In this document: positions 87 to 58,443 of the stretch, in pieces | Position numbering within the stretch: position 1 is the stretch's first letter | How the letters are laid out: each line of letters opens with the position of its first letter | Assembly (NCBI GenBank): GCA_049617695.1 | Contig: JBMZJT010000001.1 | Location: 1-58,557, forward strand | Source: Thermoplasmatota archaeon | GTDB taxonomy: Archaea > Thermoplasmatota > E2 > JACPAO01 > JAHFTW01 | Reading direction: 5' to 3' | DNA: 58,557 nucleotides | Made by a program: the position numbers and the translations under genes | The notes under the pieces: model-generated | Seen by the model: the letters and a program-made list of their open reading frames with translations, nothing else | Database searches by the model: none | Told to the model about the DNA's origin: nothing

Positions 87-1400
87 TTAGACCAGGCGGT
101 TTTGGCGGCGTGGCCGGAAGTCGACGACGCTGCGAATCAATTCGTCCTCGGCCAGAACCTGGCGGGTAGAATCGATGGGGCAACTCATCTGGATTTCGCG
201 GGTGCGGCCGTAGCGTCCCTTGCTGATGACGCGGGCCGTGAAGATGCCGAGCATGTCCAGTTCGCTGATCAGGTCCGTGATGCGGCGCTGGGTCAGGATG
301 TCGCTGCCCGTCGCCTTGCACAGGTCCTTGTAGATCGCGAAGACCTCGCCCGTCGTCAGGGTGTGGACGCCGACGGCCTTGTTGTCCTCTTCACCGAGGA
401 TGGTGGCCAGCAAGACCAGCTTGCTCTGGGTCGGCAGGGTGCGCACGACTTCGCTGATGCGGTCCAGTTCAATCTTGTTCTGGGCCATGCGGACGTGGCT
501 TTCGCTCACGGTCTTCTGGCGTTCGCGTTCACAGAGTTCGGCGGCCACGCGCAGCAGGTCCAAGGCACGGCGGGCGTCGCCGTGTTCACGGGCTGCTAGG
601 GCGCTGCACAAGGGGATGACGCTGTCGTCCAGGACGCCTTCCTTGAGCGCCATGTGGGCGCGCTGGGTGAGGATGTCCTCGAGTTGTTGGGCGTCGTAGG
701 GGGCGAAGATCATGCTTTCTTCGCCGAGGCTGCTCTTGACCCGGGGGTCCAAGAATTCCGTGAACTTGAGGTCGTTGCTGATGCCGATGACGCTGACCTT
801 GTTGTTGGCCAGGTCGCTGTTGATCCGAGTCAGCGTGTAGAGGACTTCGTCGCCCTTGAGCTTGTCCACTTCGTCGAGCACGATGATGGTGACTTCGCCG
901 GGTTTGCGGTTGTTGTCCACGGTCCAGCGTTCGTCGTCGCCCTTGGTGTTGCCATCGACGTAGCGGCGCAGGGCATCGTACACTTCGTCCGTGGGCCAGC
1001 CGGTGAATGGAATGCGGTGGCTCCACTTGTCGGCGGGGACGAAGGCGTTGGCGATGTTCTGCAGGACGCGGTACTGGGTATCGACGACCTCGCAGTTGAT
1101 GTAGATGAGATTGACACGCTTGCCGAGCTCTTCGCCCTTCGCGCTCAGTTCTTTGCCGACGTACTTGACGCAGGCGGTCTTGCCGGTGCCGGTCTTGCCG
1201 TAGATGAAGACGTTGCTCGGCGTTTCGCCGCGCAGCGCCGGCACCAAGATGCTGCCCAGGCTGCGGATCTCGAGATCGCGGTGGGGCAGGTCATCTGGCG
1301 TGTAGGACGAGCGCATGACTTCCTTGTTCTGGAAGAGCGGCTCGACCTCCAGCAATTGTCCAAACAGATCATTGACCAATGGTGAATCCTCCCATGCCAT
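87..1400 (-). CDS. cdc6: Orc1/Cdc6 replication initiator (AAA+ ATPase plus C-terminal winged helix)
   Basis: Lies in ORF 87..1535. Walker A GKTGTGKT and Walker B IIVLDEVD are present, with an overall archaeal Orc1/Cdc6 layout. The ATG at 1400 (MAWEDSPL) is the more plausible start; the 45 upstream codons are Gly/Thr/Pro-rich and look non-native. Confidence 0.9.
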   Translation of the reverse strand: MAWEDSPLVNDLFGQLLEVEPLFQNKEVMRSSYTPDDLPHRDLEIRSLGSILVPALRGETPSNVFIYGKTGTGKTACVKYVGKELSAKGEELGKRVNLIYINCEVVDTQYRVLQNIANAFVPADKWSHRIPFTGWPTDEVYDALRRYVDGNTKGDDERWTVDNNRKPGEVTIIVLDEVDKLKGDEVLYTLTRINSDLANNKVSVIGISNDLKFTEFLDPRVKSSLGEESMIFAPYDAQQLEDILTQRAHMALKEGVLDDSVIPLCSALAAREHGDARRALDLLRVAAELCERERQKTVSESHVRMAQNKIELDRISEVVRTLPTQSKLVLLATILGEEDNKAVGVHTLTTGEVFAIYKDLCKATGSDILTQRRITDLISELDMLGIFTARVISKGRYGRTREIQMSCPIDSTRQVLAEDELIRSVVDFRPRRQNRLV

Positions 1401-1716
1401 GACCTTGATTTCCTCTGGAGGACACCTGGTTCCGCTCCCATCGGTTCCAGGCGCATCAACGGTCGTAGGCGAAGTAAAACCGTCCAATCCCGCACTGCAC
1501 ATAACCCCTCCCCCTTCCTTCTGCAACCCCTTCATTTCGCATGGAAATCTCTGCCAAGGAGAGCTTGGTCAAACGCTGGTTCGTGTGACGCAAAACGGCG
1601 TCGCGACCCATCCGTGCGATGGCCGCCGACAGCTCGAAAATGCCGTCCCTGGCCGAGCTTCCGCCCCAAATCAACATGCGCTGTGGCCGCGCGTGGCGTG
1701 CACAGGAAGCGTCGCT

Positions 1717-10281: not shown

Positions 10282-12609
10282 ATGGTGCGAGCACTCCTCA
10301 TCGCCGCCGTGCTTCTGATCGGCACGGCCAGCGCGGCCGACGCAAATCGCCAAGAAGATACATGGCAGGCCGAGGCCGACATTGATGCAACCGCCATGGC
10401 CGCCCTCGAAGATTGGTACTTGTTTGGCACGGCGGACACCACGCCCACCACGGGCCAAGATATTGAGCCCAATCAGCCCGTCTGGTACCTCTGGAATGAA
10501 GCGGTCCGGGTTGGACAACCTCCCGAATGGCGGCAAGATCGCAGCGGCACCTCGGATCCTGAGTGCGTCATTGTCCCGAATCTCGCGGGTGTCCCTCCGG
10601 TGTTCACGGACTGTGTCGGCAACGTGGTGGCCGTTGATCTAGCTTGGCGCAGCGAAGGCCAAGACGGCATCGCGTATGTGTTGGGCGTCAACGACGGTGA
10701 TGGCGAAGGCAGCATGCAGTTGTTCACGAGTCAAGCTGGACTCCAGGATGCCTTCGCGTTTACTGGGGAAACCCTGAACGACGTGGCCATCAGTGGCGAC
10801 GGCGACTACGTGGCCGTTGCAACCACGGTTTCGGGTGACGAACTTGGCGATCCCGATACCGGCAACTTGCGTCTCTTCAACTTCAATGCGGGCACCCTCA
10901 TTTGGGAGCGCCCCCAGGATGATCCCGTGATGACCGTGGACATCGACGTGGCGGACAATGGCGCCACCGGGCGCATTGTCGCATCCTCGGACAGCTTCTT
11001 CCTCGGCTACGACCTGGGCGGTACGGTCTTCCGTCAAGCCCTTGGGGCCAACTTGGAAGCCACGAGCGTCGCGGTCTCCCACACGGCCACCCAGTGGGCT
11101 GTCGCGGGATTCACGCAGGGACATGTCAACTTGTATGGCTTGGAGACGCCACAAGTCTACGACCGACAAGCCAACGACAACCCGGACAACGAAGACATCG
11201 TCCAAGTCGCCATCACGGCCGATGGCCGCTTCTACGCTGCGGCCGACAGCGACGGGGATCTCTTCCTGTACAACAATGAATTCACAGACCTCGGCAGCCC
11301 TGGGCTGCTCGAAAAGATTGACCTCGGCACGACCATTCACGACCTGGCGTTCAGCCACAACGGTCGCTACCTCGTCGCCGCGGCCGACAGCACGGTCCAC
11401 TTCTACCGCGTCAGCACCGGCGGCCTCCAAGAATACTGGAGCGACACGCGCACCGGGGCCGTCGAACACGTCGACATCTCAGGAGATGGCGCCACGGTTC
11501 TGGCGACCGTGGGTGACACGGTCCATCGCTACGAAGAAGAGCGGAAATTGACGTTCACTGGGCCTGTCAGCGCCCTCACCATCGAGCCGGGTGCCAAGGA
11601 ACAGGCCACGGTCCAACTCAAGAATGATGGCAACCGAGATGTGGACATCGCGCTGAGCGCCGTCCTTCCGAAGGACTGGGGCGTTGAATTCGATCCCAAG
11701 AGCGTCACCCTGCCTCCTGGAGGCCAACAGAATGTCAAAGTCTCCTTGGTCGCAGCCGATGGTCACCCTGCCGGTGATGAACAGGTCATCATCAAGGCCG
11801 CCACGGGCTCCGGTAGCCAAGAAGTCACTCTTGACGTCGTGGTCCTCCAAGACCGTGTCTGGAACGTGCAGAGCAACGGCACACTCAACGTGGGCCTCGA
11901 TGCAGGCGGCAGCGCCACCCTGACGGTTCTCGTGACCAATGAGGGCAATGCCGTGGATGAAACGACGATCATTGCGACCACCGACAAAGAAGGCTGGAGC
12001 GTGACGGCACAGCCGGCCAGCGTCCGCCTGGATCCTGGTGAAATGACCAAGGTCCGCATCGTCGTACAAGCGCCCAGCGATGCCAAGGAGCTCGAAACGG
12101 CGATGATTCAGGTGTCGGCACTGGCTGAACCCGACGTCGTCGTGGATTTGACGGCGACGGTCGGCGCCAACTTTGGCATCTCCTTTGCTGGCACGCTGCA
12201 AGGCCCGCTTTACCCGGATGAGCGCAAGTCGTTCGAATTGAGCGTCACGAACACCGGCAACGCGCCGGACAGCATCCAGATTCAGACCGAAGGTCTCCCT
12301 CGGGGTTGGGACCTCATCTACCCCGATGGCAACAATCCATACACGGTCTTCAGCCTCCAACCCGGTGCCACGACGACCATTCCCGTCACGGTTGCCGTGG
12401 ATGACGATGCCGAGCTGGCCAACTATCAATTCCGCATCCGGGCCACGAGTCTTGGTGACAGCACCCAGAGTCAAGTCGTCACGATCACAGTCGCCGTGGA
12501 AGAGCTCCCGGTCGAAGAGCCGAAGGACAAGAAGAGTCCGGGGGCTCCGGTCGTTCTCCTGGTTTTGGCCCTGCTCGCCGTGGCCGGAACCCGCCGCTTC
12601 CGACCGTAA
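10282..12609 (+). CDS. secreted surface protein: beta-propeller-like N-terminal repeats plus NEW3/CARDB-like beta-sandwich domains, C-terminal SPG-hydrophobic-RR signal
   Basis: Signal peptide MVRALLIAAVLLIGTASAADA. Repeated propeller-like strands are seen (VAISGDGDYVAVAT, VAITADGRFYAAADSDGDLFLYN, LAFSHNGRYLVAAADSTVHFYR, VDISGDGATVLATVGD). The C-terminal half carries repeats of the L-P-x-G-W ... P-G ... pattern. The tail is KKSPGAPVVLLVLALLAVAGTRRFRP. Confidence 0.8.
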   Translation: MVRALLIAAVLLIGTASAADANRQEDTWQAEADIDATAMAALEDWYLFGTADTTPTTGQDIEPNQPVWYLWNEAVRVGQPPEWRQDRSGTSDPECVIVPNLAGVPPVFTDCVGNVVAVDLAWRSEGQDGIAYVLGVNDGDGEGSMQLFTSQAGLQDAFAFTGETLNDVAISGDGDYVAVATTVSGDELGDPDTGNLRLFNFNAGTLIWERPQDDPVMTVDIDVADNGATGRIVASSDSFFLGYDLGGTVFRQALGANLEATSVAVSHTATQWAVAGFTQGHVNLYGLETPQVYDRQANDNPDNEDIVQVAITADGRFYAAADSDGDLFLYNNEFTDLGSPGLLEKIDLGTTIHDLAFSHNGRYLVAAADSTVHFYRVSTGGLQEYWSDTRTGAVEHVDISGDGATVLATVGDTVHRYEEERKLTFTGPVSALTIEPGAKEQATVQLKNDGNRDVDIALSAVLPKDWGVEFDPKSVTLPPGGQQNVKVSLVAADGHPAGDEQVIIKAATGSGSQEVTLDVVVLQDRVWNVQSNGTLNVGLDAGGSATLTVLVTNEGNAVDETTIIATTDKEGWSVTAQPASVRLDPGEMTKVRIVVQAPSDAKELETAMIQVSALAEPDVVVDLTATVGANFGISFAGTLQGPLYPDERKSFELSVTNTGNAPDSIQIQTEGLPRGWDLIYPDGNNPYTVFSLQPGATTTIPVTVAVDDDAELANYQFRIRATSLGDSTQSQVVTITVAVEELPVEEPKDKKSPGAPVVLLVLALLAVAGTRRFRP

Positions 12610-12670
12610 CGACTATCAACTGACAAATCCACGAACGGCTAGAAAGGGCAGTTTGCCCTAGGAGTCGTGC

Positions 12671-15600
12671 ATGCGTGGACAAATCATTCCTCTAACGATC
12701 GTGGCAACCTTCGTGCTTGGCACGTTGGCGGCCGCCGCCCCGGCGACCGACAGCCAGATCACTGCCGCCGAGAACGCCCTTGACAACGTCGGTCCCCTCG
12801 GGGAAGACGTGCTTCAGGGCGACTGGGAAGAAAAACAGGAACGCCACCGCTGGTACTACCGCGACGGCGATGTCCTCAACTACGCGCGCGAAGGCCGCAA
12901 CGGCAACTGCTGCGGCTCCTGGTCGTACCTGTACGACCCCATCCAAGACCTGCCCGGCCTGGGCATCACCAGCGGCCCGGTCACCTTTGACTGGGGCACC
13001 ATCACCAACGACTTCGAGCTGGACCGCATCGTCTCGTCCGCGCACATCACGACCGGTGGCAGCACCGATGTCTATGTTGAACTCCTCGACGGCGACACGG
13101 TCATTCCTGGCGCCACCGTTATCCACCAATTCGATGCGCTCGTGTCCAACCAATACGACACGCCCGTCATCAGCCTCCTGACCAACGGCCCCGAATACGT
13201 CTCCCTCGTCGAATTCGACCCGCCAGTCGTCATTGCCGAAGGCACCGACCTCAAGGTCCGCGTGTCTGCCCCGGACCCCGTGCCGACCGACACCCAGCCG
13301 ACCGTCTTCAACTACGGCGCCGGCAGCATCGACAGCTACATTGAGCTCCATGGCAACATGGCGCGCGTCAACGCCTGGACCACGAACAACGACGGCGTCA
13401 CAACCGACTCCTTCCCTCTTGCCCAAGACGCGCCCAGTGAAGATCGCCACATCCGCACCTGGGTGGCGCACGTCAGCGCATTGGGCAGCGACCACACGCC
13501 GGGCCGCACGCCCCTCGACCCCGCCCAGCACGGCGTCCAAGTCCGCATTCTGGACAAGGATGGCAACGACCGCACTGGCATCACCGACATCCGTGTGAAC
13601 ACCCGGATCATCAAGGCCGCCGCCCCCGGCATGAACCTCGTCGAATTCGACATCCAATACCCGGACAACCTGCTCGATGAAGCCGGCAACCCGTACGACG
13701 GTCGCCTCATCATCGAGTTGTACGGTCAAAACCAGCAATGGGTCCACCGCATCCCGGTTGCCATCGCTGGCGCCCAAGTGGAGCTGGACCTGGCTGAATT
13801 TGAAGATGCGACCAAGACCATCCTCACGGGCGAGGACACCACGTTCCTCTTCGAGTTGCGCAATGGCGGCATCGTTCCCGATGACGTCATCATCACCGGC
13901 GATGAACTCAATGGCTGGAGCCTCGACGTGTTGGTGGATTCCATCAACTTGTCTCCTGGCGAAAGCCGCGTGTTCCCCATTACGATTCAGCCTCCGGCTA
14001 GCGGCCTGAGTGGCGACTTCCAAAGCTTTGACATCAAGGCCATCAGCAGCCGGACGGGCCAAACCGACACCGAGACGGTCACCGTCATCCTGACGGACAT
14101 TGAAACGAACGGCGTCGATTTGTTGGCCAGTCAATTGGAGACCGTCCAAATTTCGGCCGGTCAGACCAAGAGCATTGGCTTGACGATCAAGAACCTCGGC
14201 AACAGCGCTGAGGACTTCAGCCTCAGCACCGCTGGCGCGCCCCTTGGCTGGAAGGCCAAGCTGAGTCCGTCCAGTACGGAACTGGGTGCCAAGAGCCAGA
14301 GCGGTACCCTGCTGACTGTCACGGCGCCCGAAGATGCCCAACAGGGTGACAAATTCGCCTTGACCGTCACCGTGCGCAGCATCGTGGACAACACCATCAA
14401 GGACACCATCATCGTGCCCTACGAAGTGTTCTTCCGCGAGGACTTCACCCTTGAAGTGAGCCACGAAGCCATTGCCGGTGAATTCCAGAACTACATCACC
14501 ACCTTGGCAGACATGCAGGCGTTCTCGGACACCAACAGTCTGGTCCCTGCGCCCGGCATTCACACCCTGCGCGACGAAGGAACCGATGGCGACACGGCTG
14601 ATTACGCCAACACGGCCACGGTTCCCTGCTCGCCCCTGACCGTCGCAGGCGTTCGCCCCTGCCTCGATGCCAACCCTGGCTCCAACTGGGATGGCCGTGG
14701 CGACCCGGACATTGACTACGACCAATCCACACTGTTCCGCCTGGTCCTGACCAACCATGGCAACCGCGAGGACACCGTGCGCTTGACGCCCAACTGGGTC
14801 TTCGACGGCGCTTGGGAATCTCGCGACGTGGCCGAGTGCGAAGAGCGCGATGGCGGCAACACCGATGGTGTCCCTGATGGCTGGCGCTTCCGCTACTGGG
14901 AGGCCGGCACGCCCCTGCCGCCTGCCCTCGATGGCCCCTACGGCATGACCGATTCCAACAGCCACGACGAGAACCCCGCCGGCGGTCTTGGCAACCGCCG
15001 CCTGTCTGCAGACATCCGTACGGTGGACTTGGAAGCGGGCGAAGAGAAAATCATCTGGGTGGAGCTTGGCTGGCAAATGGTCAAGCGCATGGACGACTCG
15101 GACAACCAGAACACGGACAGCCTTGCAAATTCCGTGTGCACAGAAGGCACGGTCCAATCCGGTGCCGGCACCCGCATGGGTGGTGGCGCCTCCGACGGCG
15201 GTGACTACACGGACGCCACCAAGAACGCCGTCGTCAAGTTCACCGCCGAAAGCCTGCGCGACTTGACCAAGGTGCAAGACCTCTACGTCCGCGCCCACTA
15301 CGAACCCGATGGGTCCCAGGTGCGCGACGGCAGCCAACGCTACTCTGGCCAACACAACCAAGTCTACTTGGGTCTGGACACGGCGGACTACACCAACCCG
15401 GAACAGATTGGCGACCTCAATGTGCACCTCACCAAGGGCACCGAAGAGGAACGCACGGCGGACTTCCACCTGCGCGTCGTCAATGCCGGCAACGAACAGG
15501 ACACCATCCGCGTCGAGATTCCGATTGACACGGACGCCTACGAGTACTTCATCTCGGAAGCGGCCGCCGAACCCGGCGTCGTGACGGCAAACCGCGTGGA

Positions 15601-18124
15601 CCACAACCCCGGCAACCCTCGGGCCGTCGGCTGCACCGACCCTGCTGGCAAGTCCTTCATGGACTGCACTCTCGGTGCCTTCGACGAGATTGACTTCAAC
15701 GTCAACGTCCGTGCCAAGCTCGACAAGGTCCCCATTGGACAAATCCACACCTTGCAAGTGCGGGCAACCAGCCTGGACAGCCTCCAGGTGGCCGGCGGCG
15801 CCGTGACCAGCCTCGTGACGCTCCAAGCCTTGGCAACCGGAACCCATGCCTTTGCCATCACGGAGCCTGTCGTCGCCGATGGTATCCACGATGTCGATGT
15901 CGTTGCAGGGGAAACCTTCCGCGTTCCCTTCGTCATCCAAAACCAGGGCACCAGTTTCGACAACTACCAAGTCGATCTGCTCGAACAACCTCCGGCAGAC
16001 AGTGGCTGGGAAGGCATCATCGGCTTCAACAGCCCACAATTCGTGGCCGCTGGCAAGGACCATGTTGGCTTCCTGACGGTCGCTGCGCCGGAAGATGCCC
16101 AAGTCGGTGATTCGGAGACCTTCCGTGTTCGCGTCGCCAGCCTGGATGGCGTCGATGTGCCCCAACGCACCCTGCGCATCCAAGCCAATGTCGTGGCCGC
16201 ACCGGCCGGCATCGAACTGGTCGCCGATCCGATTGAAATCATTGGATTCCCGGGCAGCACCGTCGATGTCACGTACAAGGCGACGCGCACCAGTGGTCTT
16301 GCCACAAACGTCGACTTTGCCTTGGACGAAGACGCGCTTCCCAACGGATGGAGTGTCGTCGGTGACGCAACGCCAGCCGCCGTCGATTACGACGTCAACG
16401 GCCAAGCGACGTACACGTTCCAAATCCAAGTGCCGAGTGAAGCAATCGGCAGCAGCCGCTTGCCGGTCACGGCCACGGCGACGGACAGCAACGACAACGA
16501 AGCACGTGCGCAAGCGGTCATCAACCTCGACAGCTCTGTCTTCGGGGTCCGCTTGAGCAGTCCTGAAGACTTCGAAGCCGAAGAATTGACCACGAACGTT
16601 GTGGCTGGATCCAAGGTCGAAGTGCCTGTCCGCGTCCAGAACCTGGGCGGCGGCGTCGATCGCATCGCCTTGACAACGGAGCCGCTGCCGGAAGGCTGGC
16701 AGGTCATCTTTAGTGAAGGCAACCCCGACGCGGCAAGCTTCCAGCCATTCGAAGCACGCAACGTCATCGTGACTGTCGTGGCACCGGAAGGCGTTCCCGC
16801 TGGCCAAGGCATCGACGTGGTGCTCGTCGGCACCAGTACGGGTGATGTGACGCGCACGGACAACTTCGTGATCAAGGTCCGCACCGGCCAATCGATTCTC
16901 GAAGTCGGTGTCCCGACGGCGCCCACGCGCTACGTCGCGCCGCTCGAAGAGGTTGTGTACAACTTCGCCGTGCGCAACAACGGCACCGTGCGTGACGAGA
17001 TCACCTTCGGTGCGGGTCTCTCGGCAGCGTACGAAGACTTGCTCCAGGTGTCCTTCAACCCGGCGAGTGCAAACCTGGGCCCTGGTGAAAGCGCCAGTGT
17101 CACGGCGCGGCTGACGGTTCCTGAAGGCTTCCTGTCGGGTGCGGTCATTCCCATCAAGCTGCAAGCCACCAGTGATGGACCGTTCCTCAATGCCTTTGGC
17201 GAATCCTCCGTCGAAGTGCGGCTGCTCGAACACCGCACCCTGGACATTGATAACGATGGCAACCCGGAGTACGCCGTTGACCGCAACCGTGACGGCAGTG
17301 ACGGATTCGAAGACTACACGGATCCCGTCGCCGGAGGCAAAGCCAGTGCATCGATTGACATGAGCCAGTTCTTGACGCCGGAAGCGATCGATGACTGGAC
17401 CGTTCTCGTCACGGACAATGGCACGACGGTGAGCGTCTTCGCCTACAGCTTCGACCTGACTGGCGACGGCCGCATCGACCACTTCATCGACGATGACCAA
17501 GACAACCTGCCCGACACGTTCTGGGATCCCCACACCAACGGCCGCGACGACTTGGAAATTACGTACGATGTCACCAACGATGGCGTGCGTGAATACTTCG
17601 TCGACGTCAACAGCGACGGTCTGCTCGACGTCTGGTACGACATCACCACTGGCCAAGTCGGCCAACTTCTGAAGGTCGACGTCGATGGCGATGGTGCCCC
17701 CGACTTCGTGGTGGACCTCGATGGCGATGGCATGCAAGATGATGGCGAACCCGTGCTCTTTGGTAGCGACGGTCGCATCACGAAGATCACGCAGAGCCTC
17801 GACGTCAACGGCGACGGCCGCCCGGATTTGGTCGTCGATGAAGACGGCGACGGCATTCCGGACTACTTCGTCCCCGCCGGCAAGACTCGTGGTGTCGCGA
17901 TTGTCCTGGAAGACGTCAACGGCGACGGCGTGGAAGACTGGACCTACGACGCCAACAACGACGGCCGCCGCGACAGCTACTACGACCCGGTGACCGGCCA
18001 AACGGGCAGCATCGACACGGGCAGTGAATTCATCGACGGCCTGAGCCGCTACTGGTACGTCCCGACGCTTTTCGCGCTCGTCACCGTCCTGTTCGTCGTC
18101 CTTGTCGTGGTGACCCGGAGGTAA
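12671..18124 (+). CDS. giant (1817 aa) cell-surface protein with multiple NEW3/CARDB-like domains, a C-terminal Ca-binding DxDxDG repeat region and a C-terminal membrane anchor
   Basis: AGGAG-type SD lies 8 nt upstream of the ATG. Signal peptide MRGQIIPLTIVATFVLGTLAAAAPA. A recurrent domain signature is present (TVTAPEDAQQGD, TVAAPEDAQVGD, VVAPEGVPAGQG, LTVPEGFLSG). Twelve DxDxDG loops are present. The tail is YWYVPTLFALVTVLFVVLVVVTRR. Confidence 0.85.
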   Translation: MRGQIIPLTIVATFVLGTLAAAAPATDSQITAAENALDNVGPLGEDVLQGDWEEKQERHRWYYRDGDVLNYAREGRNGNCCGSWSYLYDPIQDLPGLGITSGPVTFDWGTITNDFELDRIVSSAHITTGGSTDVYVELLDGDTVIPGATVIHQFDALVSNQYDTPVISLLTNGPEYVSLVEFDPPVVIAEGTDLKVRVSAPDPVPTDTQPTVFNYGAGSIDSYIELHGNMARVNAWTTNNDGVTTDSFPLAQDAPSEDRHIRTWVAHVSALGSDHTPGRTPLDPAQHGVQVRILDKDGNDRTGITDIRVNTRIIKAAAPGMNLVEFDIQYPDNLLDEAGNPYDGRLIIELYGQNQQWVHRIPVAIAGAQVELDLAEFEDATKTILTGEDTTFLFELRNGGIVPDDVIITGDELNGWSLDVLVDSINLSPGESRVFPITIQPPASGLSGDFQSFDIKAISSRTGQTDTETVTVILTDIETNGVDLLASQLETVQISAGQTKSIGLTIKNLGNSAEDFSLSTAGAPLGWKAKLSPSSTELGAKSQSGTLLTVTAPEDAQQGDKFALTVTVRSIVDNTIKDTIIVPYEVFFREDFTLEVSHEAIAGEFQNYITTLADMQAFSDTNSLVPAPGIHTLRDEGTDGDTADYANTATVPCSPLTVAGVRPCLDANPGSNWDGRGDPDIDYDQSTLFRLVLTNHGNREDTVRLTPNWVFDGAWESRDVAECEERDGGNTDGVPDGWRFRYWEAGTPLPPALDGPYGMTDSNSHDENPAGGLGNRRLSADIRTVDLEAGEEKIIWVELGWQMVKRMDDSDNQNTDSLANSVCTEGTVQSGAGTRMGGGASDGGDYTDATKNAVVKFTAESLRDLTKVQDLYVRAHYEPDGSQVRDGSQRYSGQHNQVYLGLDTADYTNPEQIGDLNVHLTKGTEEERTADFHLRVVNAGNEQDTIRVEIPIDTDAYEYFISEAAAEPGVVTANRVDHNPGNPRAVGCTDPAGKSFMDCTLGAFDEIDFNVNVRAKLDKVPIGQIHTLQVRATSLDSLQVAGGAVTSLVTLQALATGTHAFAITEPVVADGIHDVDVVAGETFRVPFVIQNQGTSFDNYQVDLLEQPPADSGWEGIIGFNSPQFVAAGKDHVGFLTVAAPEDAQVGDSETFRVRVASLDGVDVPQRTLRIQANVVAAPAGIELVADPIEIIGFPGSTVDVTYKATRTSGLATNVDFALDEDALPNGWSVVGDATPAAVDYDVNGQATYTFQIQVPSEAIGSSRLPVTATATDSNDNEARAQAVINLDSSVFGVRLSSPEDFEAEELTTNVVAGSKVEVPVRVQNLGGGVDRIALTTEPLPEGWQVIFSEGNPDAASFQPFEARNVIVTVVAPEGVPAGQGIDVVLVGTSTGDVTRTDNFVIKVRTGQSILEVGVPTAPTRYVAPLEEVVYNFAVRNNGTVRDEITFGAGLSAAYEDLLQVSFNPASANLGPGESASVTARLTVPEGFLSGAVIPIKLQATSDGPFLNAFGESSVEVRLLEHRTLDIDNDGNPEYAVDRNRDGSDGFEDYTDPVAGGKASASIDMSQFLTPEAIDDWTVLVTDNGTTVSVFAYSFDLTGDGRIDHFIDDDQDNLPDTFWDPHTNGRDDLEITYDVTNDGVREYFVDVNSDGLLDVWYDITTGQVGQLLKVDVDGDGAPDFVVDLDGDGMQDDGEPVLFGSDGRITKITQSLDVNGDGRPDLVVDEDGDGIPDYFVPAGKTRGVAIVLEDVNGDGVEDWTYDANNDGRRDSYYDPVTGQTGSIDTGSEFIDGLSRYWYVPTLFALVTVLFVVLVVVTRR
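17243..17990 (+). repeat. array of 12 FG-GAP/VCBS-like DxDxDG calcium-binding loops in six pairs (protein-level repeat within the giant gene)
   Basis: The loops, read from the translation, are DIDNDGNPE, DRNRDGSDG, DLTGDGRID, DDDQDNLPD, DVTNDGVRE, DVNSDGLLD, DVDGDGAPD, DLDGDGMQD, DVNGDGRPD, DEDGDGIPD, DVNGDGVED and DANNDGRRD. Confidence 0.7.
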
Positions 18125-18128
18125 ATCG

Positions 18129-19784
18129 ATGCGCATCCAGCTTGTTGCCCTGATGACGGCGCTGGCGCTGCTTCCCGCTGCGCAGGCGCAAGAAGCCCAG
18201 GATCCAATCGTCCATGACGTCCGCCTGATGCTCGGCGATGCCGAAATTTCGAGTATCGACATCATCGACGATCACGCCAAGGCGTTCACCTACGAAGTCG
18301 ATGTCGAAGACCCAGACTTTGGTGGAGAAATCCTGCTCGTTGAATTGGTCGTGCACCTGCCCAACGGGGCGCTCACCTTGCGCCCGACCCTGGCAGAACG
18401 CGATGGGGACATCGAAACTTGGAGTGGCAGCCACCCCGTCGACGACGTGCGCCTCGTGGTCGGCACCCACCCCGCCGAGCTACGCGTCTTCGATCGCAAC
18501 GGAGGCCAGACCTTCTGCGCCATCGAAGGCAACCAAGGCTCCTGCTTCAATGGGCCCGACGTGGACAGCCTCGGCGTCACGTGGACGTCTCAGAGCAGCT
18601 ACCAGCTGGGCCTGGACTTGCTGGACGCCGATGCCGATGAAACCCAAGTTCTTGGACCCGGAGGCAAAATCCGTCTCGACGTCGGTGTCAGCAGTGCCAC
18701 GCAAGATGCCCCCTGGGCATTGCAACATGTCCGCTTCGTCAACGAATACGGCGAATTCACCACGGCTGCCAAGAGTCTCCGCGTCCCCTACGTCATCGGC
18801 CCGCAGGATTTGCAGCAAGGCATGCAGGCCCTGACGATCACGGCAACTGACCGCGCAGGCCGAGCTGTCAGCCTCGAAGTCGATGCCGATGTGGATACGA
18901 AGGCACCGCTGGTCGATGTCGCGCTGCCGGCCTTGACCTACCAAGGTGTCCCCTTCGACGTGCGCGTCCAAGTTGATGACGCCAACGACTACACGGCAAC
19001 CGCCATCCTCGATGATGTGCGGATCAACCAGACCGGTGGCCCGGGCGTAGGATTGGTGCCGTTCACATTCGAACGCGATTTGCTGGGCAACGGCAGTCTG
19101 CTCGTTCGTGTTGTTGACGTTTATGGCAACCAGTTCCTGCGCCAAGTCAACGTGACAACGGTGGAAGCTCGCACCGATTCGACGGTTCGCGTGGAAGTCA
19201 CGCCGAGCCATCCGCTGCCGCAAGAGAACGTCACCGTGCGCTTCACCGCCCAGCAACAAAGCGGTGTTGCGACGTTGCCATTCAACCTCACCTTGACCGT
19301 CGATGGCCTGGGCGTCGTTTGCTGCGATGAAGGCGTCGATGTACCGCTCAACGTGCCATACGAGTATGCGTTCAGCCGCTTCTACCTGCCCGGGCAATAC
19401 GCATTCAATGCAACGATTGCCCCGGTCCCTGGCGTCAACGAAACGGACGACAGCGACCAAACCGATGTCGGCTTCTTCGAGGTGTTCATGGGAAAGGTGG
19501 TCTACAATGATGAGACCTACTTCATGCGCCTTGGCGACGGCGGCATCGAACCCAGCCATGCCGTCAGCCCAGGTGGTAGCCTGTATGACGTCACGGCGCG
19601 GGAGCAGAATGGTGGCACGGTGTTTGCTTTCACGGCCAAAGGCGTCGACCTGTACTGGGATCCGCTCATGCGCGTCACGGACCTGACGCCGGAAGAGACG
19701 GAGCCTGGCGAAGAGAGTCCCGGGGTGCCGGTCGCCCTCGTGCTGCTCCTGGTTGGCATGCTTGCCTGGGCGCGTCGCAGGTAA
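18129..19784 (+). CDS. secreted surface protein with C-terminal SPG-hydrophobic-RRR signal
   Basis: Starts 4 nt after the giant gene stop. Signal peptide MRIQLVALMTALALLPAAQA. The tail is TPEETEPGEESPGVPVALVLLLVGMLAWARRR. Confidence 0.8.
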   Translation: MRIQLVALMTALALLPAAQAQEAQDPIVHDVRLMLGDAEISSIDIIDDHAKAFTYEVDVEDPDFGGEILLVELVVHLPNGALTLRPTLAERDGDIETWSGSHPVDDVRLVVGTHPAELRVFDRNGGQTFCAIEGNQGSCFNGPDVDSLGVTWTSQSSYQLGLDLLDADADETQVLGPGGKIRLDVGVSSATQDAPWALQHVRFVNEYGEFTTAAKSLRVPYVIGPQDLQQGMQALTITATDRAGRAVSLEVDADVDTKAPLVDVALPALTYQGVPFDVRVQVDDANDYTATAILDDVRINQTGGPGVGLVPFTFERDLLGNGSLLVRVVDVYGNQFLRQVNVTTVEARTDSTVRVEVTPSHPLPQENVTVRFTAQQQSGVATLPFNLTLTVDGLGVVCCDEGVDVPLNVPYEYAFSRFYLPGQYAFNATIAPVPGVNETDDSDQTDVGFFEVFMGKVVYNDETYFMRLGDGGIEPSHAVSPGGSLYDVTAREQNGGTVFAFTAKGVDLYWDPLMRVTDLTPEETEPGEESPGVPVALVLLLVGMLAWARRR

Positions 19785-21114: not shown

Positions 21115-21187
21115 AGCCGCTGACGTGATTTGAACACGTGACCTGCTGATTACGAATCAGCTGCTCTACCAACTAAGCCACAGCGGC
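21115..21187 (-). tRNA. tRNA-Thr (anticodon CGU)
   Basis: The reverse complement folds as a cloverleaf. Acceptor GCCGCUG/CAGCGGC, D arm GCUU/GAGC, anticodon stem GCUGA/UCAGC with loop UUCGUAA, T arm ACGUG-UUCAAAU-CACGU. No CCA is encoded. Confidence 0.9.
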
Positions 21188-53945: not shown

Positions 53946-55155
53946 AGGACTCCAGGAATCGGTCGATGATGTCGTCGGTAACGTGCGGGCCGACAACGAT
54001 GCGTAGGGCCTCAAATCGGGGCACGATGTTGAGTCGGAAGCCCGCGGACATGAGCCTGGCATGGCGGCTCTTGACGTCGCCGTGATGGAACGTGACGACG
54101 TTCAACTCAGGCTCGGCAACGAGGCTCGCGCCGCGTGCCTTGAGGCCTTGTGCCAGCCGCTTGGCAGATGCGATGCATCGGTGGGCATTGGATTCGTAGC
54201 CGTCCAGGCCAGTGGCGCGGTGCGCGGCCCACGTGGCGGCGACGGCGGCGCCGGGCCGGGTGCCCATGAGCGTGCTTTGGCTGTCGGTGCTAACGTAGCT
54301 CGTCTCGACCGCCGTGGCCTGCCAAATGCTCGCGTCGGCGACGACCAACGCACCGGCCGGAACGGGAGCCATGCCCATTTTGTGGGGGTCCAGCGCGACA
54401 CTTGTCACGCCAGGCACGCGCAAATCCCAGGGTATCTCCAGGAATGGGAGAACGTAGCCGCCAAAGGCGCCGTCCACGTGGCAGTGGGCGCCGACGCGTT
54501 GGGCTGCGGCTGCAATGGCCGGGATGTCATCGACCAAGCCGAGTTCCGTGCTGCCGGCGATGGCCACGACCAGAGCCGTGTCATCGCTGATGGCTGCCGC
54601 CATGGCGTCGGGGTCGCTGCGCAAGTCGTCGCCGGCGGGCACGCGGATCAACTCCATGCCCAGCATGCGGGTGGCCTTCTCGAAACTGAAGTGCGCGGCG
54701 CCACTGATGACGACTTGGTTGCGGCCCGTAGTTTCCCTGGCCAGGTAGCAGGCTTGCAGGTTGGCTTCCGTGCCACCTGTGAGGAACCGCGCATGCTCGG
54801 CGCCGGGCGCGCTGACAAGTTGTGCCAGGTCCGCTAGGACGTCGCGTTCGAGTTGGGCCGTGCCTGGGAAATGATCTGGATCGCCGAGGTTCGTCGGCAG
54901 GAACCATCCGTAGACCTCTTGGGCCAACGCATGGGGCTCCGTGCACATCGAGCCCAGAATTTCGCCTTGGGCAAAGGAGAGGTCCTTGCTGCGGGCGTCG
55001 TGCAAGGCGGTGCGCACCGCCTCGGGCGGCCACGGCTGGCGGTCCACGAAGTCTCCATGGCGCCTCGGATAAAAGGGCAGGCCTGTAGATTCACCAATCT
55101 CTGAACCAAGGCCTTCTCCCCAAAGCGGTCTCTTGCCCGCCATGGCCGGAAGCAT
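53932..55155 (-). CDS. mfnA: PLP-dependent L-tyrosine/L-aspartate decarboxylase
   Basis: GSMCTEPH, TGGTEANL, HVDGAFGG and the PLP-lysine context DPHKMG are present. The start is at 55155 or 55143. The longer ORF to 55407 is rejected. Confidence 0.8.
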   Translation of the reverse strand: MLPAMAGKRPLWGEGLGSEIGESTGLPFYPRRHGDFVDRQPWPPEAVRTALHDARSKDLSFAQGEILGSMCTEPHALAQEVYGWFLPTNLGDPDHFPGTAQLERDVLADLAQLVSAPGAEHARFLTGGTEANLQACYLARETTGRNQVVISGAAHFSFEKATRMLGMELIRVPAGDDLRSDPDAMAAAISDDTALVVAIAGSTELGLVDDIPAIAAAAQRVGAHCHVDGAFGGYVLPFLEIPWDLRVPGVTSVALDPHKMGMAPVPAGALVVADASIWQATAVETSYVSTDSQSTLMGTRPGAAVAATWAAHRATGLDGYESNAHRCIASAKRLAQGLKARGASLVAEPELNVVTFHHGDVKSRHARLMSAGFRLNIVPRFEALRIVVGPHVTDDIIDRFLESYDQG

Positions 55156-55417
55156 CCTCGCACAGCTCACGATGGCAGGCGTGATTGAACGATCGGGACG
55201 CGGTCGCGCCGTCTTGCGCGTGACACCACGATTCCTGGCCCACGTCGAACGCACCGCAGGCCTGCGCCACATCACAGGCGATGAAGCGGTTCGTGCTGCA
55301 TTGGCGTCCTGGGCCGATCCGACGCCGCGCGGCGCCACTGCCACGGTTGCAGCCATCCTGGAAGGGCAACAATCCGTCGTGACGTTCGGCACGGCGACGC
55401 GCTGCATTGCTGCCTAA
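55142..55417 (+). CDS. small hypothetical protein (91 aa)
   Basis: The ORF is divergent from mfnA (MAGSILAQLTMAGVIERSGRGRAVLRVTPRFL...). Codon bias is compatible with coding, but I recognise no family. Confidence 0.3.
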   Translation: MAGSILAQLTMAGVIERSGRGRAVLRVTPRFLAHVERTAGLRHITGDEAVRAALASWADPTPRGATATVAAILEGQQSVVTFGTATRCIAA

Positions 55418-55436: not shown

Positions 55437-55530
55437 CCGCTCAACCCCGCACAAATCCTTGGTGAACCGATGCTCCGCTGAACGAAACAAAGGCAATACG
55501 CCTGCGAAGGCGCCGTTGGCAGGATGTGAA
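55437..55530 (-). repeat. distal 94-nt copy of the tRNA-Asn T-loop-to-3'-end plus 74-nt downstream flank
   Basis: 91 of 94 positions are identical to 55571..55664 at an offset of 134 nt. The mismatches are at 55464, 55480 and 55526. Confidence 0.9.
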
Positions 55531-55553
55531 TGCAAACGCCCACGTTTGCATTC
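55528..55553. repeat. perfect 11-bp-stem hairpin GAATGCAAACG-CCCA-CGTTTGCATTC (conserved module, copy 1)
   Basis: Read directly from the sequence. The same module occurs at 57332..57357 when both are read in the orientation of their tRNA. Confidence 0.9.
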
Positions 55554-55570
55554 GGAGCGAGGTATTCGCT

Positions 55571-55664
55571 CCGCTCAACCCCGCACAAATCCTTGGTCAA
55601 CCGATGCTCCGCTAAACGAAACAAAGGCAATACGCCTGCGAAGGCGCCGTTGGCAGGATTTGAA
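55571..55664 (-). repeat. proximal 94-nt copy (includes the genuine 3' 20 nt of tRNA-Asn)
   Basis: See 55437..55530. Positions 55645..55664 belong to the intact tRNA. Confidence 0.9.
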
Positions 55665-55716
55665 CCTGCGACCCTCGGATTAACAGTCCGATGCTCCACC
55701 ACTAAGCTACAACGGC
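55645..55716 (-). tRNA. tRNA-Asn (anticodon GUU)
   Basis: Reverse-complement cloverleaf. Acceptor GCCGUUG/CAACGGC, D arm GCUU/GAGC, anticodon stem UCGGA/UCCGA with loop CUGUUAA, T arm GCAGG-UUCAAAU-CCUGC, discriminator G. Confidence 0.9.
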
Positions 55717-55816
55717 AGAGCAGGCGTATCACGTGCCTCAGGGGCACAATCGCCGCCGACTTGGGTCTCCATCATAACCGTTTCTAACCAGCCGGCGCCG
55801 AATCAAGGCCAAACGG

Positions 55817-55824
55817 TTTCAAAT
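55817..55824 (+). promoter_or_regulatory. TATA-like box (TTTCAAAT) about 26 nt upstream of the ATG at 55846; suggests a leaderless transporter mRNA
   Basis: The call is based on position and A/T richness only. Confidence 0.3.
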
Positions 55825-55845
55825 CCCGCCTCCCGTCGTCAGCCG

Positions 55846-57171
55846 ATGGCAGGTCGGGGAGCGTTCAACAGTCGCATCGGTTTCATCATGGCAGCCGTAG
55901 GCAGCGCCGTGGGGCTGGGCAACCTCTGGCGGTTCCCGCAATTGGTCAGTGAAAGTGGCGGCGCGGCGTTTGTGCTGCTCTATCTCATCCTACTGTTTGT
56001 CATCGGCTTGCCGGCTTTGCTTGCCGAATTGAGCATCGGTCGCAAGCGCGGCGTCAATGCCATCCAAGCCTTCAGCGTTGTCAAGGGACGCAACTGGGGT
56101 TGGATTGGCATCATCTACATCTTCACCGCCGTCCTGCTGCTCTCCTATTACTCCGTGGTCGCTGGGCATGCCTTGCGCTACCTCGCGGAAAGCTTCACAG
56201 CGCCCTATTTCGATGCGCCCGGCGACTACTACGCAGGCATCGCAAGCGGCGGGCCGGCCATCATCTACCACGCCTTGTTCATGCTGATCACCATCGGCAT
56301 CCTCGTTCGCGGCGTCGGCCCCGGCATCGAAAAGGCGAACCTCGTCATGATGCCGTTCCTGTTCCTGTCGGTCGTCGCCATTGCGATTTACGGCCTGACC
56401 CTGGACAGCCCCGGCTTCGAGGGCTTCAAATTCTACACCGAGCCCGATCTCAGCGCCCTGACCGCCGGTGGATTCAGTGGCACGGCTGCGCTCCTGGGCG
56501 ACGCCGCGGGCCAGACGTTTTTCAGCATCGGCCTCGGGTTGGGTACCATGCTGACGTACGCCAGCTACATCGACCGCAAGAGCGACCTGCAAAGCACCGG
56601 CATGACCATCGGCTTTGCCGACACCGGTGTCGCCGTCATCGCCGGCCTCATGGTCTTCCCGCTGCTCTTTGGACTCGGCCTGGGCGGTCTTGCCGAGGAA
56701 GGCAACGGTCTCTTCGTCGCACTCCCCGCCGCATTTGCTGAAATCGGCGGCACCCTCGGCGGCGTCTTTGCGGGCGGCTTCTTCCTCCTGCTCGTTTTTG
56801 CTGCTCTGAGCAGCGCCTTGAGCCTCCTGGAAGTGCCCGTGAGCTACATCATCGACCGGACCAACTGGGGCCGCCCCCGTGCCGTCTTGCTGATGGGCCT
56901 CAGTGTCTACGTTTTGGGCCTCCCGGCAGCCCTGTGGGGCGATTACATGGACTTCGCGGATTCCTTGGTCGGCCCGTTGCTCCTGCTCGGTGGCTTCCTG
57001 CTCGCCATTTACGTGGGCTGGCTCGATCGCAGCATCCTCGATGAAATGCGCATCGGCGCCAAGCGCGACTGGGGCAAGATGTGGGCGAGCATCATCCGCT
57101 ACCCGCTGCCTGTGGTGCTGGGAAGCCTGTTCATTTTCTCCGTGATTGGGTTCTTCCGCAACTTATTCTGA
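55846..57171 (+). CDS. sodium-dependent transporter, neurotransmitter:sodium symporter (SNF/NSS) family
   Basis: RIGFIMAAVGSAVGLGNLWRFPQLVSESGGAAFVLLYLILLFVIGLPALLAELSIGR is the NSS TM1-TM2 signature. The protein has about 11-12 TM helices. Confidence 0.9.
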   Translation: MAGRGAFNSRIGFIMAAVGSAVGLGNLWRFPQLVSESGGAAFVLLYLILLFVIGLPALLAELSIGRKRGVNAIQAFSVVKGRNWGWIGIIYIFTAVLLLSYYSVVAGHALRYLAESFTAPYFDAPGDYYAGIASGGPAIIYHALFMLITIGILVRGVGPGIEKANLVMMPFLFLSVVAIAIYGLTLDSPGFEGFKFYTEPDLSALTAGGFSGTAALLGDAAGQTFFSIGLGLGTMLTYASYIDRKSDLQSTGMTIGFADTGVAVIAGLMVFPLLFGLGLGGLAEEGNGLFVALPAAFAEIGGTLGGVFAGGFFLLLVFAALSSALSLLEVPVSYIIDRTNWGRPRAVLLMGLSVYVLGLPAALWGDYMDFADSLVGPLLLLGGFLLAIYVGWLDRSILDEMRIGAKRDWGKMWASIIRYPLPVVLGSLFIFSVIGFFRNLF

Positions 57172-57195
57172 GCCGGGGCAAGCCCCGATTCATAC

Positions 57196-57278
57196 GCGGG
57201 GGTGGCGGAGTTGGCCAAACGCGCCCGACTTAAGATCGGGTCCTACGTGGTTCGCAGGTTCGAGTCCTGCCCCCCGCA
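57196..57278 (+). tRNA. tRNA-Leu (anticodon UAA), class II with long variable arm
   Basis: Acceptor GCGGGGG/CCCCCGC, anticodon stem CCCGA/UCGGG with loop CUUAAGA, a variable arm, T arm GCAGG-UUCGAGU-CCUGC, discriminator A. Confidence 0.9.
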
Positions 57279-57309
57279 TTCTGTTGTTTTTGGGGGTTGT
57301 GCGTGGTCG
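57262..57309 (+). repeat. proximal 48-nt copy: last 17 nt of tRNA-Leu plus 31-nt downstream flank
   Basis: 42 of 48 positions are identical to 57359..57406 at an offset of 97 nt. All six differences are C/T transitions. Confidence 0.85.
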
Positions 57310-57331
57310 AGCGTGGCGAGTGCCGCGCTCC

Positions 57332-57357
57332 GAATGCAAACGTGGGCGTTTGCGTTC
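57332..57357. repeat. hairpin GAATGCAAACG-TGGG-CGTTTGCGTTC (conserved module, copy 2)
   Basis: Read directly from the sequence. It has one G-U wobble relative to the perfect copy at 55528..55553. Confidence 0.9.
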
Positions 57358-57358
57358 T

Positions 57359-57406
57359 GAGTCCTGCCCCCCGCATTTTGCTGCTTTCGGGGGTTGTGTG
57401 CGGTCG
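57359..57406 (+). repeat. distal 48-nt copy of the tRNA-Leu 3' end plus flank
   Basis: See 57262..57309. It ends 2 nt before the stop codon of the convergent ABC-2 permease gene. Confidence 0.85.
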
Positions 57407-57408
57407 TA

Positions 57409-58443
57409 CTAGAGGCGATCCATCTTGAGGCTGCGCGTCGTCCAAGCAATGGCCAGTGTCAGGGCGCCCGCGGCTGCGGCGGCGAGGCCTATGACGACCC
57501 GCCAAGTTGTGCCATCAGCGACGCCTTGGGCGAGCCGCGCGATGAGATTCAATGGATCTTGGGGCAGCGCGGCACTGGCCAGTGCAAGGCTCAGCAGCAA
57601 GACGGCATAGGCGGCCTGGGTCAGCGATTCGTCGCGAACCACGCTGGCGACCCAGGTGCCGAGGCTTGTCAGCAGGATGCCGAGGATGGTGGCCAATGCA
57701 AGCACTGGACTCGGGTGCGGCGTGGCAAACCCATTGATCCAGAAGAGGCCCAGCCACAAGATGACCTGGATGGGCACGAGAAGTACAGGAATGGCCAGTT
57801 TGCCGATGACAATCCGCCAGGCGCCAAGGGGTGCGGCGCGCAGGAGAAGCAGGCTGCGGCTCTTGGATTCCTGGCTCAATGCATCTCCGGCGATGGCGCC
57901 GCTTAGGAAAACCGGCGTGATGACCAGAAGCGGCAGGAGTGTTGCATGCACGAATGTGTACGGCCGATCGGGTCGAATGTCTCGATCCAAGTGTTGCAAC
58001 TCATGATCGAGCCGGTCTTGCCGCTCCGTTTGGAGGCGTTGCTCGTAGTCCAGGAGCAAGTCACGAAACTGGGTGACGAGCAAGGTCGCCTGGATTTCGC
58101 CGTCGGCGACGACGAGCGTGATGTCTCTGGCGTCTTCGCCCCGTTCCTCGACGATGGCGTCGATGCTGCCAGCTTGGAATGCTTGCAAGGCGGCCGATCC
58201 ATTGAGCCGGACCACATCGAGGTTCGGGGCACGTTCGAGGTGCAAGTCGAATCCGCCGGGGCCGACGTAGGCGATGTCGGCGTCGGGTTGGCCGCCCACG
58301 CTGCCCGGGTCATGCAGGGCGGTGAGGCCCGTGAGCAAGAGCGCACTAAAGCCCGCAAGGACGGCTTGCACCAGGAACGCCGTGATGAGGCTCTTTTCCC
58401 GCAGGACGTCCCGCAATTCCTTGCGCAGGAGCGCGCCAATCAT
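57409..58443 (-). CDS. ABC-2 type transporter permease (NatB-like)
   Basis: 344 aa. N-terminus LLRKELRDVLREKSLITAFLV, a long extracytoplasmic loop, then five hydrophobic helices. The ATG overlaps the upstream gene stop (ATGA). Confidence 0.6.
   Translation of the reverse strand: MIGALLRKELRDVLREKSLITAFLVQAVLAGFSALLLTGLTALHDPGSVGGQPDADIAYVGPGGFDLHLERAPNLDVVRLNGSAALQAFQAGSIDAIVEERGEDARDITLVVADGEIQATLLVTQFRDLLLDYEQRLQTERQDRLDHELQHLDRDIRPDRPYTFVHATLLPLLVITPVFLSGAIAGDALSQESKSRSLLLLRAAPLGAWRIVIGKLAIPVLLVPIQVILWLGLFWINGFATPHPSPVLALATILGILLTSLGTWVASVVRDESLTQAAYAVLLLSLALASAALPQDPLNLIARLAQGVADGTTWRVVIGLAAAAAGALTLAIAWTTRSLKMDRL

Follow-up and report, generated by a model that had tools for sequence, protein, structure and literature searches.

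Archaeal viruses, plasmids and genomic islands such as PYG1 and TKV leave attachment-site (att) duplications at tRNA genes, in which an intact tRNA is accompanied by a displaced partial copy of its 3′ part that starts in a tRNA loop. Known archaeal elements of this kind enclose 9-23 kb of DNA with an integrase gene (PMC9897764, PMC8371274), and the identity blocks at their ends measure 8 to 243 bp and may reach outside the tRNA (PMC8371274). Here we describe two related arrays, each located directly downstream of a tRNA gene, in a 58.5-kb chromosome piece of an uncultured Thermoplasmatota-like archaeon (contig JBMZJT010000001.1, positions 1 to 58,557; hereafter "the window"). The arrays at tRNA-Asn and tRNA-Leu resemble att duplications in having an intact tRNA with a displaced 3′ copy, empty sites in relatives and a break in gene order at the tRNA. 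However, the non-repeated DNA between their direct repeats spans only 43-81 nt and is gene-less, the same insert is present at two different tRNAs, the units can be tandem, and the distal end is truncated.

We tentatively propose that these arrays are gene-less att-type cassettes that arise by recombination in the T-arm, are handled in trans, and are amplified and eroded by homologous recombination, a reading that we hold to be somewhat short of probable. Both loci have the same order when read in the direction of the tRNA. The tRNA is followed by a trailer with T-runs, a 55-nt cassette, a partial tRNA copy, a second trailer, and finally the opening 9-14 nt of a further cassette (X′), after which unrelated flanking sequence begins. 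The components of the two arrays are as follows.

55643-55716, minus strand: functional tRNA-Asn(GTT) (ARAGORN; Rfam tRNA model, 76.7 bits).
55571-55664, minus strand: proximal Asn direct repeat, from the T-loop to the tRNA 3′ end, then a trailer of ~70 nt and the first ~14 nt of the cassette (X) (repeat search, 94 nt, 97%).
55530-55584, minus strand: 55-nt cassette of the Asn locus (GCGGGGTTGAGCGG...GCAT), made of a variable X-HP1 part and a conserved palindrome (gap-free and collinear with the copies at the Leu locus and in species B, see below).
55528-55553, minus strand: palindrome HP2, a perfect 11-bp stem with a 4-nt loop (pattern search, folding).
55437-55530, minus strand: distal Asn direct repeat, with partial tRNA-Asn at 55509-55530 (A to C in the T-loop), second trailer, and truncated X′ at 55437-55455.
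57196-57278, plus strand: functional tRNA-Leu(TAA) (ARAGORN, Rfam).
57262-57309, plus strand: proximal Leu direct repeat, from the T-loop to the tRNA 3′ end, then a T-rich trailer and the first 9 nt of the cassette (repeat search, 48 nt, 88%).
57301-57355, plus strand: 55-nt cassette of the Leu locus (GCGTGGTCG...GCGT), with HP1 at 57309-57330 (start confirmed by the independent contig L001).
57332-57357, plus strand: HP2 copy with one G·T position (pattern search; the independent contigs L059 and L060 end within it).
57359-57406, plus strand: distal Leu direct repeat, with partial tRNA-Leu at 57359-57376 (extra T in the T-loop), trailer copy, and truncated X′ at 57393-57406.

The original prediction, made from the sequence of the window, described a hairpin module of ~31 nt shared between duplicated tRNA 3′ ends at these two loci. 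Sharing of the module is borne out, but its length was underestimated, as the similarity extends over 61 nt at 87% identity (55528-55588 versus 57297-57357). The tRNA 3′ ends are indeed duplicated, with partial copies that match the tRNA 3′ part at 17-21 of 18-22 nt, but each direct repeat runs from the T-loop past the tRNA end to take in both the trailer and the opening 9-14 nt of the cassette. The Asn repeats lie 134 nt apart and the Leu repeats 97 nt apart, start to start. The view that the flanks of the two loci are otherwise unrelated does not hold, since both tRNAs carry the same T-arm, CGCAGGTTCRARTCCTGCC. The partial tRNA copy begins in the T-loop at both loci, and next to the junction the Asn copy carries a single substitution and the Leu copy a single additional T. 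No further partial tRNA copies are present elsewhere in the window or in the retrieved loci of relatives, on which ground we rejected a large element with a distant attR. Likewise, a composite transposon formed by two inverted cassettes around the tRNA-Asn, symporter and tRNA-Leu genes was rejected on the ground that relatives lacking cassettes keep the same gene order.

The hairpin GAATGCAAACG-TGGG-CGTTTGCATTC occurs exactly at the Asn locus and with one mismatch at the Leu locus, and none of 100 shuffled versions of the window contained any match. Folding yields the predicted 11-bp stem and 4-nt loop with a free energy of −15.4 kcal/mol (z = −3.2), and apart from HP2 the window contains no perfect hairpin whose stem reaches 9 bp. 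Four complete copies of the cassette were found (window Asn, window Leu, and units 1 and 2 of species B), each 55 nt long and aligning without gaps. Every copy begins with GCG(G/T)GG and ends with GC(A/G)T. The Asn cassette is 86-88% identical over 57-59 nt to the Leu-locus and species-B copies, and is no closer to the Leu cassette of its own genome than to those of the other species. Among the four copies, only 1 of 26 columns varies in the palindrome region CCGAATGCAAACGTGGGCGTTTGCRT versus 11 of 29 in the X-HP1 part (Fisher p = 0.0027), indicating that the palindrome is constrained at the level of sequence. Indeed, it is strongly kept between species while the adjoining cassette sequence has diverged by about 30%. 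The AGCG-(N)-CGCT arrangement that was thought to precede the module is present in both window copies, but its pairing register differs between copies, and we therefore rejected HP1 (the AGCG...CGCT stem) as a conserved structure.

A stable and sequence-conserved hairpin on the sense strand of a tRNA could represent a functional RNA copied together with the tRNA 3′ end. Candidates are a terminator, a signal for processing or stability, and a small RNA resembling a tRNA. We consider a functional RNA of any such kind improbable. T-rich stretches end archaeal transcripts. Here the T-runs come before the cassette, what follows the hairpin is a T-loop remnant of the tRNA and no T-run, and no other such hairpin exists in the window, all of which weakens the terminator option and makes a terminator role unlikely. 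Moreover, most orthologous tRNAs lack such a hairpin, acceptor pairing is broken in the chimeric unit at the Asn locus, and Rfam searches at both gathering and permissive thresholds returned nothing but the three tRNAs of the window. A weak match to YrlA (E = 0.24) was discounted because it rests on the real T-arm. H/ACA and C/D small RNAs were rejected by inspection, the ACA following the hairpin at the Asn locus only and C/D boxes being absent. Of the three options raised in the original prediction, therefore, the terminator or processing hairpin has lost ground, and the remnant of an att-bounded or miniature non-autonomous element fits best.

We obtained orthologous loci carrying the tRNA-Asn, symporter and tRNA-Leu genes via homologues of the symporter. 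Species are listed with their amino-acid identity to the window, with A denoting the lineage of the window itself, and "empty" refers to the 3′ side of the tRNA.

Species A′ (88%): Asn empty; Leu followed by the start of the cassette, where the contig ends.
Species B (81%; at least nine contigs from different samples): Asn empty; Leu followed by one or two tandem 122-nt units.
Species C (74%): Asn empty; Leu empty.
Species D (72%): Asn followed, 108 nt downstream, by a decayed copy of itself that begins within the anticodon stem (75% over 53 nt); Leu empty.
Species E (61%): Asn empty; Leu empty, with a 49-nt repeat on its 5′ side at a spacing of 102 nt.
Species F (59%): Asn empty; Leu followed by two successive partial 3′ copies from the T-loop, at spacings of 88 and 99 nt.
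Species G and I (57%): Asn empty; Leu empty.
Species H (56%): tRNA-Asn not on the contig; Leu empty.

The Leu cassette is thus common to A, A′ and B, and the Asn array is specific to the lineage of the window. Because orthologous sites are empty in relatives, the arrays are lineage-specific gains, and the repeat units of all arrays fall between 88 and 134 nt. These comparisons uphold two expectations of the original prediction, namely that empty sites would be found in relatives and that the module is no local accident but is tied to tRNA 3′ ends, as the same cassette lies downstream of tRNA-Leu in related species.

In species B the unit comprises the trailer, the cassette and a partial tRNA that covers the variable arm and everything 3′ of it, with the junction at the edge of the anticodon stem, and X is part of the insert and not of the repeat. 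The 3′ part of the working tRNA and its trailer (GAATCC...GCAC TGGA...) can be distinguished from the distal copy (GAGTCC...GCAT TTGC), which adjoins the native flank. One- and two-unit forms show exactly the three combinations of these markers that are expected from unequal crossover.

Arrays of this kind could in principle be assembly artefacts of a metagenome-assembled contig. Logan contigs do break in the repeats, and the one-unit forms of species B could be collapsed assemblies, because the 122-nt unit is shorter than the k of 141. However, Logan contigs L059 and L060, which come from two other sequencing runs, contain the distal Leu repeat including X′ and terminate within HP2. L001, which confirms the cassette start on the opposite side, spans the core from tRNA-Asn through the symporter to tRNA-Leu and ends in the repeats. 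The Leu array is thus reproduced on both sides and is not an artefact of this assembly. The arrays of species B, moreover, recur in contigs from different samples and assemblers, and fixed substitutions distinguish the repeat copies. We regard an artefact as a most remote explanation. For the Asn array, L001 reproduces the tRNA-proximal 18 nt of the trailer, and the distal copy is seen in the window only, without support from an independent contig. Short-read contig ends (L001, L047, L059 and L060) and N-gaps (L038, L041 and L054) fall exactly inside the cassette or the repeats.

Several other features were observed at the loci of relatives. The two fillers that follow tRNA-Leu(TAA) in species F (L049:2036-2310) have a common 3′ end (ATCCNNTGCG), and CTCGCACCGAATGC in the first of them matches CTCGCTCCGAATGC of the cassette. 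The 49-nt repeat of species E (L048:3468-3618; 94% identical) consists of the upstream region or promoter plus the first 11 nt of tRNA-Leu, and its filler, which forms a 7-bp hairpin (CGACCTT-CAGA-AAGGTCG), looks like a decayed tRNA-Leu copy. In species D (L045:3710-3870), the native trailer motif stands after the distal decayed tRNA-Asn copy. The tRNA-Leu of species C begins on the base right after the stop codon of the symporter (L044:5320-5321). Gene order directly 3′ of tRNA-Leu shifts among relatives (L035, L044, L045, L048, L049, L055, L057 and L058). This position is occupied by an ABC-2 transporter operon in the window and in species B, by DUF1405 and an XPD-like helicase in species C, D, F, G, H and I (with an extra 259-amino-acid open reading frame in C), and by a 1245-amino-acid AAA_11/AAA_12 helicase with an MTES_1575 domain in species E.

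The positions of the junctions are among the observations that led us to favor an att-type origin. Five of the six junctions between foreign sequence and partial tRNA lie in the 5′ part of the T-loop (window Asn, window Leu and species F twice) or at the edge of the anticodon stem (species B), whereas the remaining one, that of species D, falls within the anticodon stem. The five count in favor of this origin because these are tRNA sublocations used by integrases (PMC8371274). Recombination in the T-loop or T-arm, whose sequence is common to tRNA-Leu(UAA) and tRNA-Asn, would join a cassette to the tRNA, leaving the tRNA intact and displacing a copy of its 3′ part, as in integration by tyrosine recombinases. 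We infer that the recombinase would act in trans, with the palindrome as its likely binding site, and that unequal homologous recombination between the repeats would alter copy number and erode the array ends. The tandem one- and two-unit arrays of species B and the empty orthologous sites agree with such a process. So does the position of the distal copy of species B at the native flank, which is expected if the cassette supplied a new 3′ end, and so does the change in gene order after tRNA-Leu, as is seen at integration hot spots. The constraint on the palindrome, the joining of Leu- and Asn-like parts in the T-loop (see below) and the breadth of identity blocks at archaeal att sites point the same way.

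The arrays also appear to be associated with one type of T-arm. The sequence CGCAGG-TTCRART-CCTGCC is present at all six loci with 3′ partial copies, which were found at 6 of 12 loci with a CGCAGG/CCTGCC arm versus 0 of 8 with other arms, including the tRNA-Thr of the window. This restriction to one T-arm type is suggestive.

The cassette itself may derive from a tRNA. At the Asn locus its start is tRNA-Leu-like (GCGGGGTTGAGCGGAG versus GCGGGGGTGGCGGAG), and global alignments of the cassette to the 5′ half of the genome's own tRNA-Leu score above those of shuffled sequences (z = 1.8-2.6, p = 0.011-0.047). Control alignments to tRNA-Asn, tRNA-Thr and the tRNA-Leu of two remoter relatives mostly do not, with 1 of 12 reaching p = 0.04. 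Four additional base pairs, equivalent to the anticodon stem, underlie the palindrome in species B, where the copy stays in register through the variable arm, with a 3′ part that matches the tRNA at 39 of 41 nt. The Rfam tRNA model gave no match to the pseudo-copies at E ≤10. On this similarity, which is suggestive but no proof, the cassette is most likely the decayed 5′ half of a copy of tRNA-Leu(UAA), with a 22-26-nt palindrome in place of the anticodon loop. Given the tRNA-Leu-like start of its cassette, the unit at the Asn locus would be a Leu/Asn chimera whose parts meet in the T-loop. We rejected a split or intron-containing tRNA on inspection, because the palindrome forms a continuous helix, there is no bulge-helix-bulge motif, and acceptor pairing fails.

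Resemblance to the genome's own tRNA-Leu also counts in favor of the main rival explanation, in which the arrays arose by enzyme-independent local duplication. Replication template switching, or homologous recombination of an unequal or ectopic kind, would have acted around two neighboring, inverted tRNA genes with a T-arm in common. In such a sequence of events the Leu locus would gain a tandem pseudo-tRNA, fold-back repair would create the palindrome, and a switch with tRNA-Asn would seed the Asn array. Every junction shows a microhomology of 3-4 nt (TTCA, GTTC or ATCG) adjoining a mismatch or 1-nt indel, copy number varies with all three expected crossover products in species B, and relatives contain other breakpoints, including the anticodon-stem copy of species D and the repeat of species E that carries the promoter and start of tRNA-Leu. 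Moreover, the Asn repeat extends ~70 nt beyond the tRNA in all, and the first ~50 nt of this trailer can be aligned with the native trailers of relatives. However, this explanation leaves unaccounted for the recurrence of T-loop junctions, the strong conservation of the palindrome next to diverged sequence, the identical architecture at two loci, and the fact that the Asn cassette is no nearer to the window's Leu cassette than to those of other species. We judge it a real possibility, albeit a doubtful one.

Some of the same observations, together with several negative results, weigh against att-type cassettes. A simple incoming element fails to account for the Asn repeat, since its ~50 nt of native-type trailer points to duplication in situ. 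As a free element, a circle of 97-134 bp would be physically implausible. The T-loops of the two copies, where an attL/attR overlap would be expected to be identical, differ by a substitution (A/C) or an extra T, which could be later decay and would block further site-specific exchange. The truncated X′ that ends both arrays is not explained by one simple integration or one simple tandem duplication, and neither the att model nor template switching explains it in one step. The association with the T-arm is weak once shared ancestry is allowed for (approximately four independent events, p ~0.1). Neither an integrase nor any other gene lies between the direct repeats. More broadly, no match to integrase or transposase families, including the Phage_integrase type, was found among 40 scanned open reading frames of the window, and no integrase Pfam match was found within 10 kb on either side in the 21 kb examined from species B, in agreement with the earlier observation that no such gene is nearby. 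Finally, two scans of IMG/VR returned no palindrome, and blastn searches of phage and plasmid collections returned chance fragments only.

Searches for further copies also bear on whether the insert is a non-autonomous transposable element of the miniature inverted-repeat transposable element (MITE), repetitive extragenic palindromic (REP) or hairpin type, with a transposase elsewhere and very long target duplications. Both loci do carry the same 43-49-nt insert (HP1 and HP2) between copies of a duplicated target, the insert has an internal palindrome, and relatives have empty sites. However, the insert lacks terminal inverted repeats, as its two ends (AGCG... and ...GCATTC) do not form an inverted pair. 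At 48 and 94 nt, the duplications differ in length and greatly exceed any known target duplication, and X falls within the insert of species B. Dispersed copies are also lacking. Neither the palindrome nor X occurs anywhere else in the window, in the 21 kb of species B or in the other loci, such that copies sit only at the two tRNA loci in the former and only at tRNA-Leu in the latter. We therefore give such an element little credence. The possibility raised at the outset that the motif might be a ubiquitous intergenic repeat is not borne out, and REP palindromes or bacterial interspersed mosaic elements were rejected on the same distribution.

A scan of GTDB representatives with ATGCAAACGNNNNCGTTTGCRT yielded 33 loci in unrelated phyla, none with a flanking cassette, and by our estimate 17-35 matches to this 18-base palindromic pattern are expected by chance in 596 Gb; we therefore treat them as chance matches. 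The one look-alike, in Chloroflexia (L007), was rejected because it lies inside a gene-like region with no tRNA, and a JGI metagenome scan with a 20-nt core gave one match, which looks like coding sequence on a contig without a tRNA. Data from this lineage seem to be confined to ENA, NCBI metagenome-assembled genomes and Logan. Two other hairpins were also encountered. The Patescibacteria metagenome-assembled genome H51-bin166_1 carries a GC-rich palindrome, …GAGGAGCGCC-ATGCAAACG-AAAA-CGTTTGCAT-GGCGTCCGAGCG…, on two contigs (L002:1-60 and L027:6560-6640), where it is intergenic in an AT-rich genome, has no tRNA and no Rfam match, and appears to be an unrelated repeated element. In an uncultured bacterium (L034:140-252), this stem (ATGCAAACG...CGTTTGCAT) recurs in a hairpin 15 nt upstream of tRNA-Arg(TCT), where the flanks are unrelated and the match is probably due to chance.

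A bolder version of the att-type proposal is that the arrays represent an undescribed class of gene-less, tRNA-targeting cassettes of ~100-130 bp in uncultured Thermoplasmatota. These would be pseudo-tRNAs in which a palindromic recombinase site has taken over the anticodon loop, and which are copied or moved in trans into the T-loop of any tRNA with the CGCAGG/CCTGCC T-arm, building short arrays of tRNA tails. We consider this unlikely.

The genomic surroundings of the arrays are those of an archaeal chromosome, as Pfam matches include Orc1/Cdc6, archaeosine TGT with a PUA domain, TFIIE-alpha, diphthamide synthase and RNase HII. ARAGORN and Rfam identify three tRNA genes in the window, of which tRNA-Asn and tRNA-Leu are inverted neighbors 1.6 kb apart. 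The gene between them encodes an SNF-type Na+ symporter whose homologues are labeled Thermoplasmatota. Both arrays end close to convergent genes. Further features of the window are as follows.

87-1535, minus strand: Orc1/Cdc6 gene at the start of the window; a replication origin may be close.
10282-18124, plus strand: two huge open reading frames of 775 and 1817 amino acids with NPCBM-associated and Ig-like repeats, probably encoding surface proteins.
12692-18265: antisense open reading frame of equal length to the large surface-protein-like frames, resembling a high-GC artefact.
21115-21187, minus strand: tRNA-Thr (ARAGORN, Rfam).
55133-55417: convergent open reading frame on the Asn side, with its stop codon 19 nt past the array end.
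57409-58443, minus strand: ABC-2 permease gene, convergent on the Leu side, with its stop codon 2 nt past the array end.

If the arrays are att-only cassettes, they mark an active T-arm-specific recombination system in a lineage without cultured members and with hardly any described mobile elements, and the palindrome becomes a candidate recombinase binding site. If they are instead enzyme-independent, they provide a tidy case of recurrent template switching at tRNA genes, which is of modest general interest. On either account, partial tRNA duplications can exist without an integrated island between them. The arrays also break short-read assemblies at tRNA-Leu and tRNA-Asn, and their tRNA fragments can mislead annotation. 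The doubled length of the cassette, its probable origin from the 5′ half of tRNA-Leu, and the tandem arrays were not foreseen in the original prediction.

Among other described systems, tRNA pseudogenes and fragments (PMC9897764) are similar in that a clear tRNA 3′ fragment is present and the 5′ part is weakly tRNA-Leu-like, but the cassette differs in having a conserved perfect palindrome in the anticodon-loop region and in forming a Leu/Asn chimera at the Asn locus. The dyad symmetry of HP2, which can be read as 10-6-10 or 11-4-11, is shared with the cores recognized by recombinases such as Xer. However, a dif site has a 6-nt spacer between inverted repeats of 11 nt each (PMC8371274) and is single-copy per chromosome, whereas HP2 is present as two copies 1.8 kb apart in the window and in tandem in species B, and a dif/Xer site was rejected on both its multiple copies and its lack of an 11-6-11 dyad. 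Casposons and Cas1-type integration likewise involve the tRNA 3′ region as a target and duplication of target sequence. Casposons are characterized by terminal inverted repeats, 14-15-bp duplications and a casposase gene (PMC6614799, PMC4779613), and we rejected a casposon because the arrays have neither such repeats nor such duplications and no Cas1-like gene was found among the 40 open reading frames scanned in the window.

The cis-mobilizable elements (CIMEs) of Streptococcus integrative and conjugative elements are att-only, kilobases long and bacterial, reside beside a known integrative and conjugative element, use an integrase in trans and undergo tandem accretion. By analogy, the proposed cassette would also be att-bounded, non-autonomous and tandem, with an integrase acting in trans, but it is tiny, archaeal and has no known partner element. 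The arrays at tRNA-Asn and tRNA-Leu are real, reproducible and recurrent, and they constitute a variation on the familiar theme of tRNA att duplication rather than a new kind of system.

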